Shown in pieces: positions 5,386 through 48,450 of a stretch of 64,000 nucleotides of DNA. The stretch covers positions 4,870-68,869 of the forward strand of contig LSSJ01000023.1 of NCBI GenBank assembly GCA_001595785.1. The letters are read 5' to 3'. The position numbers and the translations under genes are program-made. Positions within the stretch are counted from its first letter, which is position 1. Each line of letters starts with the position of its first letter. The notes beneath the pieces are model-generated. The model saw only the letters and a program-made list of their open reading frames with translations, was not told where the DNA came from and made no database searches. This DNA is from Euryarchaeota archaeon SM23-78. Its GTDB lineage: Archaea > Nanobdellota > Nanobdellia > Woesearchaeales > SM23-78.

Positions 5386-6309
5386 ATGAAGCGTAAAGTG
5401 ATAAAACAAGGCGGGGGCGGCTTCACAGTCTACCTGCCAAAGAAATGGGCTGATAAAAAAGGCTTAAAGCCAGGAGACCAAATAGATATCAAGGAAACAG
5501 GCACAGCCCTAACCCTAGACACAGAAGTAAAAGAAAGAAAACAAACAAGCATAGAAATAACAGAAGAAAACAGAGCAGACATAAAGAATATTCTCACCCA
5601 CCTTTATAGAAGAGGCTTTGATATAATAATCATAACCAACACAGATAAAGAACTTCAAGATGAGATAAAAGCAATCACAAATAATATATTATTAGGCTTT
5701 GAGATTACTGAAAAACAAGAAAAAAGCTGTAAAATAGAGAATATCTCAGAGCCAACAGAAGAAAAATATGATGTGCTTCTAAGGAGAGTGTTCTTAATAA
5801 TAAAAGAAACTCAAAGGATAGTAAATAATGACTTCGAGAACAACAAGTTCAGGAGCATGAAAGAAATACAAGAGTTCAGAGACCAGCAAGATAGATACAT
5901 CTTGTTCTGCAGGAGAATACTCACCAAAGAAAGGTTTGAAATAGAAAACCCATCTCTTGAATGGGAGCTCCTCACCTTTTTAATGCACATAGAGCATGCA
6001 TATTACTACCTGTATCAATATGCCTCAAAAAACCAGTTAAAAAAGAACAAAAACATACTCGAGCTATTAGAGCACCTGGAAGAATACTTTCAGCTCTACT
6101 ACAATGCTTACTATAAGAAAGATATCAGATCCATCCACAAAATAAACCAGCTAAGAAACAAATATCAATTTGGCAAATGCTACCAATACCTAGAACAATC
6201 AAAATCAAATGACACAATAGCCTTATCATATATAAGAGAACTATTCAGACTTATACAGATAGGAACCAGTCCTATTTTGAGTGAGTATCTTGAGAAGATT
6301 CTTGACTAG
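5386..6309 (+). CDS. AbrB/SpoVT-domain plus PhoU-like domain regulator (archaeal phosphate-uptake-regulator type)
   Basis: The N-terminus VIKQGGGGFTVYLPKKWADKKGLKPGDQIDI is a typical AbrB looped-hinge motif, followed by a helical PhoU-like remainder. A TATA-like TTTAAATATAAATA lies upstream. Confidence 0.6.
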   Translation: MKRKVIKQGGGGFTVYLPKKWADKKGLKPGDQIDIKETGTALTLDTEVKERKQTSIEITEENRADIKNILTHLYRRGFDIIIITNTDKELQDEIKAITNNILLGFEITEKQEKSCKIENISEPTEEKYDVLLRRVFLIIKETQRIVNNDFENNKFRSMKEIQEFRDQQDRYILFCRRILTKERFEIENPSLEWELLTFLMHIEHAYYYLYQYASKNQLKKNKNILELLEHLEEYFQLYYNAYYKKDIRSIHKINQLRNKYQFGKCYQYLEQSKSNDTIALSYIRELFRLIQIGTSPILSEYLEKILD

Positions 6310-13732: not shown

Positions 13733-13844
13733 AGCGCTCGCTGGGATTTGCACCCAGGATCACAGGGGACAACTTTTCATTGGTAAAACCTTATCTTACC
13801 AGTAAATTTGCAGCCTGTTGCCTTAGCTACTTGGCCACGAGCGC
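13733..13844 (-). tRNA. tRNA-Cys(GCA) with one canonical 40-nt intron (37/38)
   Basis: Hand fold: acceptor GCGCTCG/CGAGCGC, anticodon stem ACAGG/CCTGT, loop CTGCAA[intron]C, T stem CTGGG/CCCAG. The T-loop is the atypical TGCAAAT. A TATA-like GCTTTATTAAG lies about 28 nt upstream. Confidence 0.85.
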
Positions 13845-16130: not shown

Positions 16131-16613
16131 TTACAACTTCTTTGCTTTCTTTGAAAAAGAGAAAATCCCCTGATTATAATTCTTGATATGCCTATAGATT
16201 GAACCTGCAAGACCAGGAATGCTGTAACCAATCAAAGGAGCCAAGTAATAAGGTAGCATACTTGTTTTTAAAAGAAAATAATGAGCAAGCACCTGCACCA
16301 CCCCCGTTATTATAGAGCCATACACATTTGATTTGATCAACCCCTTAAAATATCTCTTAGGATAAGGGCCTTTATGTTTTAAATTATAAGCCCATCTATG
16401 AGTTAAAATATTACCAATCCAAAAAGCAACAGTCATAGCCACAAATGTGCCAAGAACATTAAGCTCAAAACCAAAACCAATGTTCTTTAAAAAAATTGTT
16501 GCTGCTATTGCAGCAGAATAACCAAGAAGAGCACCACCGAATTCTGCTATATAATAATTAAGATTATCTTTAGAAAATACAACCTGACTAAAACGAAGCT
16601 TAGTTTCACTCAT
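16131..16613 (-). CDS. Membrane protein, paralogue of 15507-16046
   Basis: Start reassigned to the ATG at 16613 (MSETKLRF). The 47 upstream codons of the track ORF translate the tRNA-Arg gene. Confidence 0.6.
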   Translation of the reverse strand: MSETKLRFSQVVFSKDNLNYYIAEFGGALLGYSAAIAATIFLKNIGFGFELNVLGTFVAMTVAFWIGNILTHRWAYNLKHKGPYPKRYFKGLIKSNVYGSIITGVVQVLAHYFLLKTSMLPYYLAPLIGYSIPGLAGSIYRHIKNYNQGIFSFSKKAKKL

Positions 16614-16618
16614 AAGAA

Positions 16619-16852
16619 TGGACCAGGAGGGACATTCAGAAAAACAGCGTTCTCCAGCAACAAGTTGCTGTCCCAGCAAACTTTGCTTGTTTCTGGGCGA
16701 TCCGCGCTGCTCCTCGTTCGAACCCTCGATCCCCAGCTTAGAAGGCTTGCACAATGCTTACACGTAAAGTAAGAGTTTTGGTGCCTTTTCCAGCTTTGCT
16801 GGAAGCTCAAAAGCTCCCTGCTTTTGTTGTATCCAGACTAGGCTACTGGTCC
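16619..16852 (-). tRNA. tRNA-Arg(UCU) interrupted by three introns (D-loop 43 nt, anticodon stem 32 nt, T-loop 84 nt)
   Basis: Hand fold gives exons 16852-16830, 16786-16780, 16747-16717 and 16632-16619. The 75-nt mature form is GGACCAG TA GCCT AGTCTGGATA AGGC A CCAGC CTTCTAA GCTGG GGATC GAGGG TTCGAAT CCCTC CTGGTCC A. All stems are Watson-Crick. Confidence 0.8.
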
Positions 16853-33732: not shown

Positions 33733-33924
33733 GGGGACGTAGTATAACCTGGCTAGAAGGCTTTAGGCTATTAAGCCTGGTCATAATGGATGGCTCCAGT
33801 TTTGGAGCGATGAGACGAAAGTCAATGATTAAACCATTGGTGCGTCGTTCTGAGGAAGGCACCATCAGATCTGGGCAGGTGTGCAAGAGCAGACACCTCA
33901 GGATTTCGAATCCCAGCGTCCCCA
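33733..33924 (+). tRNA. tRNA-Trp(CCA) with a 61-nt canonical intron plus probable D-loop (about 28 nt) and T-arm (29 nt) introns
   Basis: Acceptor GGGGACG/CGTCCCC. Anticodon stem GATGG (33789-93)/CCATC (33862-66), loop CTCCAG[intron 33800-33860]A. T stem CTGGG (33871-75)/CCCAG (33912-16), with TTCGAAT only after removing 33876-33904. The D-arm boundary is uncertain. Confidence 0.75.
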
Positions 33925-33933
33925 TAACTGCTC

Positions 33934-34575
33934 TTATTTTTTCATCTTTAGATATCTTTTAACATGCTTTAGGTTCTTAGGAGAAAACAGTTGAAAAAAC
34001 CTGCGAATTTCAGATTGACGACAGAGATAAAATTTCCAAGAAAAATTATTCTTGTTACTTTCTCTTTGAATTCTTGAAGGATGAAAACCCAATTGAACTA
34101 ACAATTTATAAACTGAAGAAAGCGTTTCTTCACAAGCTAATTTAAATTGAACTTGAAGAAAATTATCATATTTACGATAAACACAGCCGTCTGTATCAAA
34201 AAATCCTCTTAAAAATCGAATAATGCTTATGTTTTCTTGATAAATCCAAAAAGGAAGGGTTATTTTATTCTTTATTTTATTTCCTACACAAATACCAACA
34301 GCTTCTAATTGTTTTCCCACAAAAACAGAGGTGTTTCTAAGCAATAATTCATCTTTAGTTTCAGTAATACAGAACTTATATCCATCAAAGTAATTCTCAA
34401 AAAGGTTTTTTACATAAACTAAATAATCCTTCTCATCTTTATTAAATGAAATAACAGTTTGGTATTTGTTTAATCTGTCAAGATATAAACATCCATCCCC
34501 CATCATAATGCCGACTATTTCTGCGAGTTCTGGAGTTAATTTTGGTTTCATCTCACCTTTAGTTGATGGAAGCAT
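33934..34575 (-). CDS. Free-standing double-motif LAGLIDADG homing-endonuclease-like protein
   Basis: The two motifs are IVGIMMGDGCLYL and FLRGFFDTDGCVY. TTATAAAT lies about 30 nt upstream of the ATG. Confidence 0.75.
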   Translation of the reverse strand: MLPSTKGEMKPKLTPELAEIVGIMMGDGCLYLDRLNKYQTVISFNKDEKDYLVYVKNLFENYFDGYKFCITETKDELLLRNTSVFVGKQLEAVGICVGNKIKNKITLPFWIYQENISIIRFLRGFFDTDGCVYRKYDNFLQVQFKLACEETLSSVYKLLVQLGFHPSRIQRESNKNNFSWKFYLCRQSEIRRFFQLFSPKNLKHVKRYLKMKK

Positions 34576-37740: not shown

Positions 37741-37906
37741 ACGGCTGTGGTCTAGTGGTTACAACAAAAGAGAAAAAACTCTTTTGAGCTTGCGGCAGAG
37801 CCGCAAATGACGCGACCCTCCCAAGGTCGTTGCCCGGGTTCGAGAACAAAAACGAAGTTTTTGACTTTCGCAAAGCTTCGCTTTGACGAAACTCCCGGCA
37901 GCCGTA
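37741..37906 (+). tRNA. tRNA-Gly(CCC) with two introns (D-loop 46 nt, T-loop 48 nt)
   Basis: Exons 37741-37761, 37808-37844 and 37893-37906. Acceptor ACGGCTG/CAGCCGT, anticodon arm CGACC CTCCCAA GGTCG, T arm CCGGG TTCGAG[intron]T CCCGG. CTTTAAAATAA lies about 27 nt upstream. Confidence 0.8.
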
Positions 37907-45342: not shown

Positions 45343-45408
45343 TTCTAACGCAAAACATTCAACAAAAATGAAAAACCATTTTTGAGAATTTTTTGTTAAC
45401 ACAAAAAA

Positions 45409-45441: not shown

Positions 45442-45609
45442 GGGTCGGTAGCTCAGACTGGGAGAGCACACAGTCACAAGAAAACGTGTGACCGGTTCTA
45501 TACGCTGAAGACGTAGGTGAGCTGCGTGACAGAGATGTGCGTGGCCCTGAATCCTGGGTTCAAAAAAGGTTGTGCCCAAGCACGTCTTTAGGAAATCCCA
45601 GCCGACCCA
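45442..45609 (+). tRNA. tRNA-Phe(GAA) with three introns (one model: 27/28, 43/44 and T-loop 59/60)
   Basis: Acceptor GGGTCGG/CCGACCC, D arm GCTC AGACTGGGA GAGC, and TACG CTGAAGA CGTA with GAA at 45507-09. T arm CTGGG TTCAAA[31 nt]T CCCAG. Model exons are 45442-69, 45501-16, 45549-64 and 45596-609. The boundaries around the anticodon stem are uncertain. Confidence 0.7.
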
Positions 45610-45619
45610 TTTTCTAAAA

Positions 45620-45961
45620 ATGATAGTAAAAAAAGCGTCTAGAAAAGAAAAAGTAATTGCAAACAACTGCGTTGTTTGGGAGCATGATTTAAATAACAAG
45701 AATTTGGGGTTTGCTTTAGCTAAGATTAATGGAAGATTCCCCAACTCTGAAAGAGTTGCAAATAAAATATGTCAAGAAGTTTATTATGTGATTAGTGGAA
45801 AAGGTAGTGTGTTCTTAGAAGGAAAAGAAATAAAGTTAGAGCAAGGAGATGTTTTTCTTATTAAAGCTGGTAAGAAGTATTATGTTACTGGAAAAGACTT
45901 GGTTCTAGCAGTGTCATCCTCACCTGCTTGGTATGCTGAGCAGCAAGAGTTTTGTGACTAA
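45620..45961 (+). CDS. Cupin-domain protein
   Basis: EVYYVISGKGSVFLEGKEIKLEQGDVFLIKAGKKYYV cupin barrel. Start moved to ATG 45620 because the track start lies inside tRNA-Phe. Confidence 0.6.
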   Translation: MIVKKASRKEKVIANNCVVWEHDLNNKNLGFALAKINGRFPNSERVANKICQEVYYVISGKGSVFLEGKEIKLEQGDVFLIKAGKKYYVTGKDLVLAVSSSPAWYAEQQEFCD

Positions 45962-45967
45962 TTCTCC

Positions 45968-46166
45968 TGTGCTTCGCAAGGTTGGCGCCAGGCTCGCATG
46001 ATCGATTATTTAGCAGAGTAGCGACATCCCCGGATGGGGCACGTCCCCCTGTCGCTGGTTGATTACTTTTTTTGAGTATGCTCGCAAATTGGCGCTGCTC
46101 AAAAATCGTAGATTTTTGGCAGCCCAAAAGCTTTGCTTTTGATGCAACCCACCCTTGCTACGCAGA
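45968..46166 (+). ncRNA. Unassigned GC-rich structured RNA candidate
   Basis: Convergent intergenic region much more GC-rich than its flanks. Closing helix CTGTG/CGCAG (45968-72 with 46162-66) and GCAAGG/CCTTGC (45977-82 with 46154-59). The T-G wobble in that helix is tolerated only on the plus strand. Other helices: GCGCCA/TGGCGC (45986-91 with 46091-96), AGCGACA/TGTCGCT (46021-27 with 46051-57), CAAAAATC/GATTTTTG (46101-08 with 46112-19), CAAAAGC/GCTTTTG (46126-32 with 46136-42). Confidence 0.4.
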
Positions 46167-46179
46167 ATTAAGATTAAGC

Positions 46180-48450
46180 CTAACTCGTAGAAATAACCGA
46201 TGTTAATATTGAACCTGCTATTAAGGTGAAGAGGATGGTTACGCAAAGAGCCACTATCACATAGGTGACTGTGGTTTTTAAGAGGTTATTGCCAATTATA
46301 TATCTCTCACTGAGTTTGTCACTGCCATTCTCTATACCATTTATAAGGACTGATAGAATAAAGGTTATTTGTACCACATATAGTCCTACTATTATCTGGA
46401 AATAATAAGTTGGGATTCCTGTTCCAAACATGCCAAGCACCCCACCCATTCCTCCTATATCACCTCCTGCTCCTCCTGCTTCTGAACCCAAAGCAGAGAG
46501 CATTAAGGACAGGTTGCCTAGTATCTGGGTTATCATGCTTGTAATACCAACAACTATGCCTGCTATGGCTGGTGTTAGGAAACTTATCTGGCTCTTCATG
46601 CTACTCACAATATCAGCCATTAAGTCATTTAACCTCTCATCAACCCTGTGCATCTGCTTAATGTACTCTGATATGTTGATTACTGCTTGGCTTGCAATCA
46701 GAGGCCCTTTCTTGCTGCTCTCCACTAATACTTTCATGCTACTCTCAATAAGATTAGAAGGATAATAAACAAGGGCTCCTCTTTTTCTATCAAAGATTGC
46801 TTGCTCAACATTCATACCTAGCTTTGAGATATTTATGCTCACCAATTCAAAGAACCTGCCACTTAGAGTGCCTTCCATTACCTGAGCTACTTTTCCAAAA
46901 GCTATTTCTGCTGGTAAGCCATCTCCAAGTCTGTTACCAAGCTGGAACAAGGCTGAAGCAAACTCTTTTTCCAAGGCCTTGGCTTGCTCTCTTATTTTTA
47001 TCACATTCTTGCTTCTGAAATGATAGTAAATGCCAATTCCTATACCAAAGGCAAGCACCATGAACAAACTTAGAATGGTTGCTCCTAGGCCAAAAGGCCC
47101 TACTAGTTTGCCTGTTGGTCCTCCAGAAACAACCTCTTCTCTATAGCCTAGGAAATAAAAGGTTGCGTCTAGGTGAGTAGGCTCATTAATGACTTGTAAA
47201 CCCCCTTCTTTTAGTACTGCTAAGTCCTGGTCAGGATTGACTGCATGCATTATCAGAGGCAAGCTACCAATTATGAATAGTATGATAAAGATTATTATAG
47301 CAACCACCGAAGGGCTTATTCTAAGCTCCTCTTTACCAATAGGAATAAGGATGTTCCTGTACTTCCTCAGGGCTTTATTAGTCTCAGAGATATCGCTCTC
47401 CCCATACCCTGTTGGTCTTGTTGAGAGGATGTTTCTTGCAAGATAAAAAACTACTACTGGCAGTACAACATTGTATAGCATAAATAAATGATACCATTTC
47501 ACTTCTGGCATAAAACTAACAAGCAAGGGTAAAATAACCAGGCCAAGAATTGGAAGGATTATTCCAAGCATGTGCAGAGCTGTAAGCGGTCCTTTAAGGT
47601 TATGTGCATAGTGCAGCATCTTCTCATAAGTCTCTTCAAGAATAACACTCAAGGACTTGTCAAGAGCATCCAGTCTTCTGCCCTCTGTGCTCTCATAAAG
47701 CGAGGACTCGATTAGGTGTATGCTCTCAATGAACTCCATGTTATATTTACGCCAAGTCCTTAGGTAATCATCAAGACTCTCCTTTAATGTGTCAAACGTC
47801 TCTGACTCAACATCCCATAACACTTTTTTTAAATCAAAAGCAAGAGGGGGCGCAAGGTGTTCTGCTGCAAAGCTAAGAGCCCTCTCAAGATTACTGGTAT
47901 GCCTCATGTAAGTAACAATATAAAAAATGCATAAGACCATTTGGTTGCTGGCCTTCATTCTCCAGTTATTAGCAAGAAAAAAAGGAAGCTTCTGTATGGG
48001 TATAACTATTCCTAGACCAGCCAGGATTGCGAAGAGTACAAAGAACATGTTTCCGCTTCCAGGCATGATTAGTGAAGGAATGATAAAAGCAATAAAGATT
48101 ATTGAGAGGGCAAATAGAAAGGGTGCAAGCAGAGAAGCACTCATAACTCCTGTTGGGGTAACCTCTAAATGGCATATTCTTATTGCTTCTTTAAGTTCAG
48201 GTATCTTCTTTTTTTCAGGTTCTGCTCTTAAGATTTTTTCAGACCAGTTGCAGAACTTCTCATAAAAACTAAGATGATGAGGCATCCTTTCCTTCTTAAA
48301 TGCCTTGTACTCTCTTGAGGTAAGAGGTTGTGCCTCTGGAGAATAAGGAGCAGTGGCTTGTGGTTTTCCTGGCTCTTTCTCTTTAAAACTCTTTCTTATT
48401 CTTCTCTCATATTTTGCTTTAATCTCCTCTAAAGTCTCTTCTTCTGCCAT
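46180..48450 (-). CDS. FlaJ/TadC/PilC-family polytopic membrane platform protein (unusually long, 756 aa)
   Basis: At least 9 hydrophobic segments in two blocks separated by cytoplasmic helical domains. It lies immediately downstream of the secretion ATPase. Confidence 0.6.
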   Translation of the reverse strand: MAEEETLEEIKAKYERRIRKSFKEKEPGKPQATAPYSPEAQPLTSREYKAFKKERMPHHLSFYEKFCNWSEKILRAEPEKKKIPELKEAIRICHLEVTPTGVMSASLLAPFLFALSIIFIAFIIPSLIMPGSGNMFFVLFAILAGLGIVIPIQKLPFFLANNWRMKASNQMVLCIFYIVTYMRHTSNLERALSFAAEHLAPPLAFDLKKVLWDVESETFDTLKESLDDYLRTWRKYNMEFIESIHLIESSLYESTEGRRLDALDKSLSVILEETYEKMLHYAHNLKGPLTALHMLGIILPILGLVILPLLVSFMPEVKWYHLFMLYNVVLPVVVFYLARNILSTRPTGYGESDISETNKALRKYRNILIPIGKEELRISPSVVAIIIFIILFIIGSLPLIMHAVNPDQDLAVLKEGGLQVINEPTHLDATFYFLGYREEVVSGGPTGKLVGPFGLGATILSLFMVLAFGIGIGIYYHFRSKNVIKIREQAKALEKEFASALFQLGNRLGDGLPAEIAFGKVAQVMEGTLSGRFFELVSINISKLGMNVEQAIFDRKRGALVYYPSNLIESSMKVLVESSKKGPLIASQAVINISEYIKQMHRVDERLNDLMADIVSSMKSQISFLTPAIAGIVVGITSMITQILGNLSLMLSALGSEAGGAGGDIGGMGGVLGMFGTGIPTYYFQIIVGLYVVQITFILSVLINGIENGSDKLSERYIIGNNLLKTTVTYVIVALCVTILFTLIAGSILTSVISTS

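Follow-up and report, generated by a model that had tools for sequence, protein, structure and literature searches.

How did two tRNA genes for different amino acids come to carry similar inserts at the same point of their D-loops? The stretch of DNA that raises this question comprises 64,000 nucleotides (nt) of contig LSSJ01000023.1 from Euryarchaeota archaeon SM23-78 and is called the window here. It harbors a tRNA-Gly(CCC) and a tRNA-Arg(UCU) gene, for which an earlier note, made from the letters alone, had proposed homologous D-loop introns and their spread from gene to gene. We estimate the probability at roughly 85% that both inserts are protein-spliced tRNA introns of one conserved, spreading family of Woesearchaeota-type DPANN archaea, termed the CAAC family. 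The tRNA genes of the window were located by a scan for a 7-bp acceptor stem and a T-arm, by which five were found. The two genes in question and their D-loop introns are arranged as follows (R1 is a covariance model that was built from 15 family members):

37741-37906, plus strand: tRNA-Gly(CCC) gene with two introns (D-loop, T-loop), found by the acceptor/T-arm scan
37761-37806, plus strand: D-loop intron of tRNA-Gly, 46 nt, CAAC family (R1 53.6 bits, E 5e-10)
37765-37786, plus strand: hairpin 1 of the Gly intron (CAAAAGAG / CUCUUUUG)
37792-37804, plus strand: hairpin 2 of the Gly intron (GCGGC-AGA-GCCGC), its 3' strand being the exon-pairing stretch of the splice motif
16852-16619, minus strand: tRNA-Arg(UCU) gene with three introns (D-loop, 29/30, 59/60), found by the acceptor/T-arm scan
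16788-16830, minus strand: D-loop intron of tRNA-Arg, 43 nt, CAAC family (R1 55.4 bits, E 1.9e-10)

The insert sequences quoted in the earlier note were recovered at 37762-37807 for tRNA-Gly (CAACAAAAG-AGAAAAAACT-CTTTTGAGCTT-GCGGCAGAGCCGC-AAA) and, on the minus strand, at 16829-16787 for tRNA-Arg (CAACAAAAG-CAGGGAG-CTTTTGAGCTT-CCAGCAAAGCTGG-AAA). As had been claimed, both follow directly 3' of the D-loop sequence ...GG(T/A)TA and share their 5' and central blocks, CAACAAAAG and CTTTTGAGCTT being exact in both introns. In the Gly intron the block CTTTTGAGCTT lies directly 3' of hairpin 1 and ends at 37791. In the 64 kb, neither CAACAAAAG nor CTTTTGAGCTT has an exact match outside the two D-loop introns. 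A global alignment of the introns matched 34 of 46 positions (74%) and gave a score of 51, while alignments of shuffled introns scored 19.2 +/- 3.9 and none out of 5000 reached the observed value. The mature tRNA-Gly and tRNA-Arg bodies share just 45 of 75 bases (60%). Hairpin 2 reads GCGGC/GCCGC in Gly and CCAGC/GCUGG in Arg, which amounts to two double changes, G-C to C-G and G-C to A-U, with the pairing kept, and the compensatory changes described for this hairpin were thereby borne out. Due to the exact core, the shuffle statistics, the unlike tRNA bodies and the double-changed hairpin 2, the similarity is not a low-complexity effect; it is not limited to A/T runs but includes an exact core of 20 bases as well as a hairpin that covaries.

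Similar introns might also have arisen independently, if endonuclease and folding constraints at the D-loop site had made them alike. It is true that the splice motif dictates the 3' tails (AA|A, AAAG|A, CGAAAG|U), and tails of this kind are met again in unrelated T-loop introns. However, the 20-base exact core is situated outside the motif-constrained parts, and it is also present at position 37/38 of other tRNA genes and in intergenic DNA, where there is no D-loop context. Moreover, the D-loop introns in orthologous genes of two relatives (L163 and L164; L numbers designate the sequences compared with the window) look different. Such a convergence is hardly credible.

C boxes (RUGAUGA) and D boxes (CUGA) were absent from both D-loop introns, and Rfam gave no match at either of them, even with E values up to 10. 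An interpretation of the conserved core as a K-turn or C/D box was rejected, as the GA/AG and box motifs needed for it are missing. When the introns were excised in silico, ARAGORN identified the resulting 72-nt and 75-nt sequences as Gly(ccc) and Arg(tct), respectively. The spliced exons of both genes are intact and form perfect cloverleaves. It is conceivable in principle that both genes are pseudogenes disrupted by repeats and that functional copies reside elsewhere in the genome. This would agree with the failure of standard finders to detect either gene: on the raw 64-kb window, ARAGORN called none of the five tRNA genes, and Rfam reported a single tRNA (13733-13844) with one canonical intron. 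On the other hand, pseudogenes would not be expected to have intact exons and perfect cloverleaves, nor a 4-bp exon-intron helix that is in the right register for every insert. Both loci are, in addition, syntenic with single tRNA-Gly(CCC) and tRNA-Arg(UCU) genes of relatives and possess TATA-like boxes upstream. A pseudogene origin is therefore extremely improbable.

To be removed by the splicing endonuclease, the inserts should be bordered by a bulge-helix-bulge motif, for which the following rule was applied: four exon bases, two bulge bases and the cut, with the mirrored arrangement at the 3' end. In tRNA-Gly, the exon bases GUGG (37755-37758) pair with the intron bases CCGC (37801-37804), the bulges being UU|A and AA|A. 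In tRNA-Arg, exon CUGG (16836-16833) pairs with intron CUGG (16793-16790) by C-G, U.G, G.U and G-C pairs, with the bulges AU|A and AA|A. Both introns reveal four of four central pairs at register 0 only. The predicted cuts are at 37760|37761 and 37806|37807 for Gly, and at 16831|16830 and 16788|16787 for Arg. Relative to the insert coordinates of the earlier note, this register is shifted to the left by one base, but the mature tRNA is unchanged; because of a repeated A, the same tRNA results from either register.

The central helix is complete in 15 of 17 CAAC-family introns, and likewise in four of four other introns, with a peak at slide 0. The two exceptions are the copies at position 37/38 of tRNA-Arg in L162 and L163, which have three of four pairs and a 4-bp inner helix instead. 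Across the hosts, seven different combinations of exon and intron 4-mers were encountered, and the pairing is kept in them: GUGG/CCGC in the window Gly, CUGG/CUGG in the window Arg, GCGG/CCGU and GUGG/CUGC in Val, CUGG/CCAG in a short Arg intron of L162, UUCG/CGAA in Ala and UUGC/GCAA in Gly(GCC). At the sequence level, this covariation between exon and intron is the strongest sign that the inserts may be substrates of the splicing endonuclease, and by their motif geometry the D-loop introns of the window are predicted to be relaxed bulge-helix-bulge substrates. RNAalifold suggested that exon GGYU pairs with the conserved AGCU; this helix was discarded as splice helix since its cuts would not yield a tRNA, and since the exon sequence is missing from the 37/38 members.

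A family member consists of CAAC, hairpin 1 (CAAAAG...CUUUUG), AGCUU, a host-specific hairpin 2 and an A-rich tail. For splicing, the following course of events is proposed. The four bases immediately preceding the 3' bulge, which belong to the 3' strand of hairpin 2, would pair with the four exon bases preceding the 5' bulge. The resulting 4-bp central helix would be measured by the archaeal splicing endonuclease (EndA), and after cleavage a ligase would join the exons. Hairpin 2 uses the exon-pairing stretch as its 3' strand, so that this hairpin and the splice helix are mutually exclusive. For the Val introns introduced below, the predicted minimum-energy fold is splice-competent and contains a 7-bp inner helix that uses the UUUUG loop of hairpin 2.

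A scan for the exact core, CAACAAAAG-N(3-16 or 3-11)-CTTTTGAGCTT, covered one genome per prokaryotic species and the Joint Genome Institute (JGI) metagenomes. Most of the matches were coding or due to chance. A distinct set, however, was located inside tRNA genes of DPANN archaea (MAG, metagenome-assembled genome):

D-loop of tRNA-Val(CAC/UAC/GAC), at the same site as in the window: L002 (Woesearchaeota MAG), L100, L126, L139, L140, L142
Position 37/38 of tRNA-Ala(CGC): L035, L111, L116, L146
Position 37/38 of tRNA-Gly(GCC): L063 (Nanoarchaeota MAG, identical to L110), L131, L136

With the covariance model R1, true members scored 42-65 bits compared to 22-35 bits for chance matches to the same pattern. 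The model also detected members that had not been selected by the pattern, at position 37/38 of tRNA-Arg(UCU) in L162 (34.5 bits) and L163 (21.3 bits). In these two copies hairpin 1 is altered by a compensatory change from A-U to G-C or by G.U pairs. Hairpin 2 covaries as well: five pairs change on both sides, the covariation score was matched by none of 500 shuffles, and 94% of the hairpin 2 cells are paired against 81% in the shuffles. Across the assemblies, copies of the family thus reside at the D-loop (20a/21) and at 37/38. All of the intron-bearing Val, Ala and Gly genes collected were missed by ARAGORN. Among the viral contigs searched, there was one chance match, in a giant-virus bin.

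Two further observations were made in these assemblies. In L116, the tRNA-Pro(CGG) gene beside tRNA-Ala(CGC) contains a 40-nt D-loop intron (CAGCAAAAA..TTTTTG.., ~5935-5975, minus strand) at the same site, GGTT|A; L146 lacks an intron there, so that this is a further site filled in one assembly and empty in another, and L111 seemingly has a T-loop intron instead. By its sequence the L116 intron is possibly a distant family member (R1 14.4 bits). In L063, at ~1330-1470, the last ~20 bases of tRNA-Gly(GCC) together with a T-rich tail (ccggtcgccgcatatttttt) occur twice, ~80 nt apart, which looks like a partial duplication of a tRNA 3' end of the type left by integrating elements.

To date the gains, orthologous loci of related genomes were compared. 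The gene order RFC - tRNA-Gly(CCC) - YchF is conserved among the relatives, which differ in their introns (percentages give the identity of YchF to that of the window):

L158, 87%: spacer without a tRNA
L159, 84%: tRNA-Gly(CCC) with a T-loop intron only
L160, 83%: tRNA-Gly(CCC) without intron
L161, 80%: tRNA-Gly(CCC) with a 37/38 intron only

The D-loop intron of tRNA-Gly(CCC) is consequently absent in L159, L160 and L161, and a recent gain in the lineage of the window is the parsimonious reading of this distribution. The proposal of intron spread is therefore supported by the homology of the two introns, by the presence of the family in other tRNAs and at other positions, and by the orthologous Gly loci. 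The family appears to have been copied between non-isoacceptor tRNA genes and between positions, that is the D-loop, 37/38 and perhaps 59/60. Copying could have proceeded at the DNA level, by conversion or insertion, or by reverse splicing.

The filled and empty sites also bear on the assumption that the intron descended from a common ancestor of both tRNAs, or was present in many ancestral D-loops, and was lost elsewhere. tRNA-Val carries a D-loop copy in several assemblies, so that vertical inheritance may hold within Val, and the D-loop site of tRNA-Arg is filled in four of five relatives. By contrast, the tRNA bodies are less alike (60%) than the introns they contain (74%), the three close relatives mentioned above (YchF 80-84%) have no D-loop intron in tRNA-Gly(CCC), one of them being intronless there, and the intron sets are unlike in every pair of relatives. 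Ancestral descent is thus very unlikely.

As to the origin of the Gly copy, its identity to the Val D-loop introns of other assemblies is 79-83%, compared to 74% to the Arg intron. On these identities, tRNA-Arg is unlikely to have been the direct donor. The D-loops of Val and Gly(CCC) (AGYGGYUA) present the same pairing partner; from this and from the closer intron identity, a D-loop intron of the tRNA-Val type would be the best guess for the donor. Four derived bases of the window tRNA-Gly (positions 25, 26, 30 and 32) match tRNA-Val of L126. Co-conversion of the exon flanks from tRNA-Val was not counted as evidence, as the match is to only one of six Val sequences.

The history of the Arg intron seems to be a longer one. 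Among five relatives, the tRNA-Arg(UCU) gene downstream of the MFS (major facilitator superfamily) gene has zero to three introns, and its D-loop site is occupied in four of the five. In L165, the gene has no intron and the D-loop site is empty. L162 possesses a 16-nt D-loop intron (ACAATAAAAGCCAGAA) at the site of the window intron, with ends matching those of the window, and a family copy at 37/38. In L163, the D-loop intron is unrelated, the 37/38 site is filled by a family copy and the T-loop is interrupted as well; L164 has introns in the D-loop and at 29/30. Since its ends are common to L162 and the window, the Arg D-loop intron is probably older and would predate the split of these two lineages. 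The comparison suggests that both introns diverged by internal deletion or expansion. According to the favored explanation, the Gly(CCC) copy would hence have been gained recently, likely from a tRNA-Val-type intron, while the Arg(UCU) copy would have been held for longer.

Several points weigh against the interpretation of the inserts as spreading, protein-spliced introns. For the two window introns, the predictions favor the self-contained fold with two hairpins, hairpin 2 being more stable than the competing 4-bp splice helix. A good inner helix is absent from both, and pairing is poor in the helix beside the D-stem. In the Arg intron, the central helix moreover depends on two G.U pairs. 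No RNA runs containing the window stretch were found, and splicing and cut sites are predictions. Members were gathered by the exact-core pattern, and the invariance of the core and of hairpin 1 is thus partly built in. Finally, the three relatives could, strictly speaking, have lost the D-loop intron of tRNA-Gly(CCC) repeatedly.

Elements resembling the introns are also present outside of tRNA genes. Three such copies were found, each of them situated 3' of a stop codon, with a TATA-like box following immediately:

45360-45405 of the window, plus strand: intergenic copy with CAAC, hairpin 1, GAG and hairpin 2, between the stop codon of the glycyl-tRNA synthetase (GlyRS) gene and the TATA box of tRNA-Phe
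955-995 of L124: R1 53.3 bits, with a PemK-like toxin gene on one side and an ArsR-like gene on the other
4023-4057 of L163: R1 28.6 bits, intergenic

The window copy reads CAACAAAAATG-AAAAAC-CATTTTTGAG and continues with a second hairpin. In the surroundings of the L124 copy, neither tRNA features nor a splice helix were recognized. These copies may be hairpins similar to terminators, they may be remnants, or they may have been inserted as a mobile module. They raise the possibility that the family is basically a small, dispersed or mobile DNA hairpin repeat, whose copies in tRNA genes survive only where they can be excised as a bulge-helix-bulge intron. The spread of introns would then be a by-product. 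This would be a specific mechanism within the favored explanation and not an exclusive alternative to it. Apart from the three copies themselves, it is consistent with the three matches that the relaxed pattern CAACAAAAN{4,16}TTTTGAG has in the window (the two introns and 45360-45405), compared to 0.03 expected. Furthermore, the window copy corresponds to an insertion or deletion relative to L169: the orthologous spacer between GlyRS (83% identical) and tRNA-Phe lacks a 54-nt stretch that contains the copy. Like the introns, the 54-nt block opens with CAAC; an imperfect A-rich direct repeat of 8 bp, AAAACATT / AAAAAATT, flanks it.

However, there are just three intergenic copies, two of which have diverged. 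Being imperfect and rich in A, the direct repeat could be due to chance, and a target repeat is missing at the Gly D-loop site. Neither terminal inverted repeats (the hairpins are internal) nor a linked transposase or integrase were found, and the position of the intergenic copies 3' of stop codons and next to TATA boxes would also suit hairpins that are selected as terminator-like structures. A mobile repeat is, all in all, rather doubtful. The same caution applies to its more specific form, in which the CAAC element would be a tiny mobile module devoid of genes that inserts into intergenic DNA and tRNA genes; we put it forward only tentatively. In such a module, the variable hairpin 2 would supply, or quickly evolve, the four bases that pair with the exon. 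A bulge-helix-bulge site would be built in this way, the host endonuclease would remove the damage, and the copy would persist.

Another site near tRNA-Phe is of uncertain family membership. Two tandem hairpins similar to hairpin 1 lie at 46095-46146 on the minus strand (R1 21 bits, E 0.013), just past the stop codon of a gene for 756 amino acids. The distance between tRNA-Phe and the 3' end of this gene is ~520 bp in the window (45610-46180) and ~52 bp in L169. The additional DNA includes a small open reading frame (~45620-45961) and a GC-rich, hairpin-rich stretch (~45975-46065) besides the tandem hairpins.

The remaining tRNA genes and introns of the window are:

13844-13733, minus strand: tRNA with one canonical intron, found by Rfam
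33733-33923, plus strand: multi-intron tRNA gene, found by the acceptor/T-arm scan
45442-45609, plus strand: tRNA-Phe(GAA) with several introns, anticodon loop CTGAAGA
37845-37892, plus strand: T-loop (59/60) intron of tRNA-Gly, 48 nt, two-hairpin layout, splice helix UUCG/CGAA with four of four pairs
16747-16778, minus strand: anticodon-stem (29/30) intron of tRNA-Arg, splice helix GCAC/GUGC with four of four pairs
16633-16716, minus strand: T-loop (59/60) intron of tRNA-Arg, 84 nt, textbook bulge-helix-bulge with UUCG/UGAA and a long inner helix

The earlier statement that three of the five tRNAs carry a T-loop intron proved correct, these being Gly, Arg and Phe. The Gly T-loop intron reads AACAAAAAC-GAA-GTTTTTG-AC-TT, followed by a hairpin and CGAAAC. 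R1 spans it entirely (37844-37891), though weakly (17.3 bits, E 0.088). Judging from this match and its layout, it may be a distant member of the CAAC family at a third position. The 29/30 intron of tRNA-Arg is 42-48% identical to the D-loop introns and unrelated to the family in sequence.

The Arg T-loop intron belongs to a second intron family, which it shares with the 46-nt T-loop intron of tRNA-Gly(CCC) in L159. Both have CCCAGAAA in common, and their 3' ends (AACGCWGTTTTTCTGAATG) are identical at 18 of 19 positions; the 3' end AACGCTGTTTTTCTGAATG of the Arg intron reappears as AACGCAGTTTTTCTGAATG in the L159 intron. From the alignment, the 46-nt intron looks like an internal deletion of the 84-nt Arg version.

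The orthologue of tRNA-Phe in L169 (4101-4262) has another set of introns, namely in the D-loop (absent in the window), at 37/38 and in the T-arm. Within one intron of the multi-intron tRNA at 33733-33923 (plus strand), motifs similar to C/D boxes (ATGAGA ... CTGA) were noticed. A free-standing double-motif LAGLIDADG gene (33934-34575, minus strand) is located 10 nt from this tRNA, and the relative L161 likewise has a LAGLIDADG_3 gene in the syntenic location. The listed open reading frame of 207 amino acids at 16131-16754 (minus strand), which overlaps tRNA-Arg, is an artefact of the listing; the VTT/DedA-like gene most likely starts at the ATG at ~16610, just past tRNA-Arg. On ~8 kb of the contig beyond the window, there are large surface-protein genes only and no tRNAs.

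Which organism harbors these introns? The best named relatives of the neighboring YchF-type GTPase, MFS-like protein and GlyRS are from Candidatus Woesearchaeota and Nanoarchaeota. On the basis of these protein relatives, the host is assigned to the DPANN Woesearchaeota/Nanoarchaeota and not to the Thermoproteales. DNA of the window was found in marine sediment and seawater metagenomes (DNA runs).

The spread of tRNA introns as such is a known phenomenon. For Thermoproteales, Fujishima et al. (2010, Mol Biol Evol 27:2233, as presented in PMC4090602) reported similar introns at several positions of unrelated tRNAs, which were read as the result of transposition. In the Thermoproteales work, transposition was deduced from sequence similarity alone; its mechanism is not known, and the targets are believed to be restricted by the splice motif (PMC4090602). 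The CAAC family resembles these clusters in that closely similar bulge-helix-bulge introns occur in tRNAs for different amino acids, at canonical as well as non-canonical sites and in tRNA bodies that are not specially related. A further similarity would be the gain of introns after speciation, with the splice motif restricting the sites at which they persist. What separates the two cases is the host, which is a member of the DPANN archaea (Woesearchaeota) and not a crenarchaeon, the occurrence of one family with an exact 20-base core across many assemblies, the two-hairpin layout with its competition between hairpin 2 and the exon-intron helix, and the intergenic copies. To our knowledge, there is no report of intergenic copies of Thermoproteales tRNA introns. 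New are thus the DPANN lineage and the unusually clear filled and empty sites.

In DPANN archaea, disrupted tRNA genes are numerous and associated with endonucleases that have the L3 loop (alpha4 EndA, PMC5829648), and the epsilon2 EndA of ARMAN-2 is an endonuclease of broad specificity (PMC3239211). The genes described here are similar to those with non-canonical DPANN introns (PMC3239211, PMC5829648) in having several introns per gene, D- and T-loop sites and relaxed motifs. The two papers deal with the enzymes and with counts of disrupted genes, and not with intron sequence families or their spread. In our literature search, no paper was found that describes an intron sequence family in Woesearchaeota.

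Asgard tRNA genes experienced many independent intron gains, mostly on terminal branches, but the route by which the introns arrived was not found (bioRxiv 10.64898/2026.10.13.758758). Like the introns of the window, those of Asgard archaea (bioRxiv 10.64898/2026.10.13.758758) include D-arm introns that are missed by standard annotators and have bulge-helix-bulge sites. In contrast to them, copying between tRNA genes is directly visible here as shared intron sequence. A 2026 preprint on 208 complete Nanobdellota genomes stated that tRNAscan-SE misses tRNA-Trp in many Woesearchaeales; tRNA-Val was missed in 15 of 54 Pacearchaeales and the cause was left open. Hidden D-loop introns of the CAAC family in tRNA-Val are a candidate explanation for these 'missing' tRNA-Val genes.

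For the question of how archaeal tRNA genes gain introns, the CAAC family constitutes a tractable case: the intron is short and sharply defined, orthologous sites are filled or empty, several tRNA positions are occupied and copies exist outside of tRNA genes. Moreover, there is a clear rule for the host sites: they must offer four exon bases with which the 3' end of the intron can pair. If the reading as a mobile module were true, it would name a concrete source of new tRNA introns in archaea and would explain why tRNA-Val, tRNA-Trp and other tRNAs appear to be 'missing' in many genomes of Woesearchaeales and Pacearchaeales.

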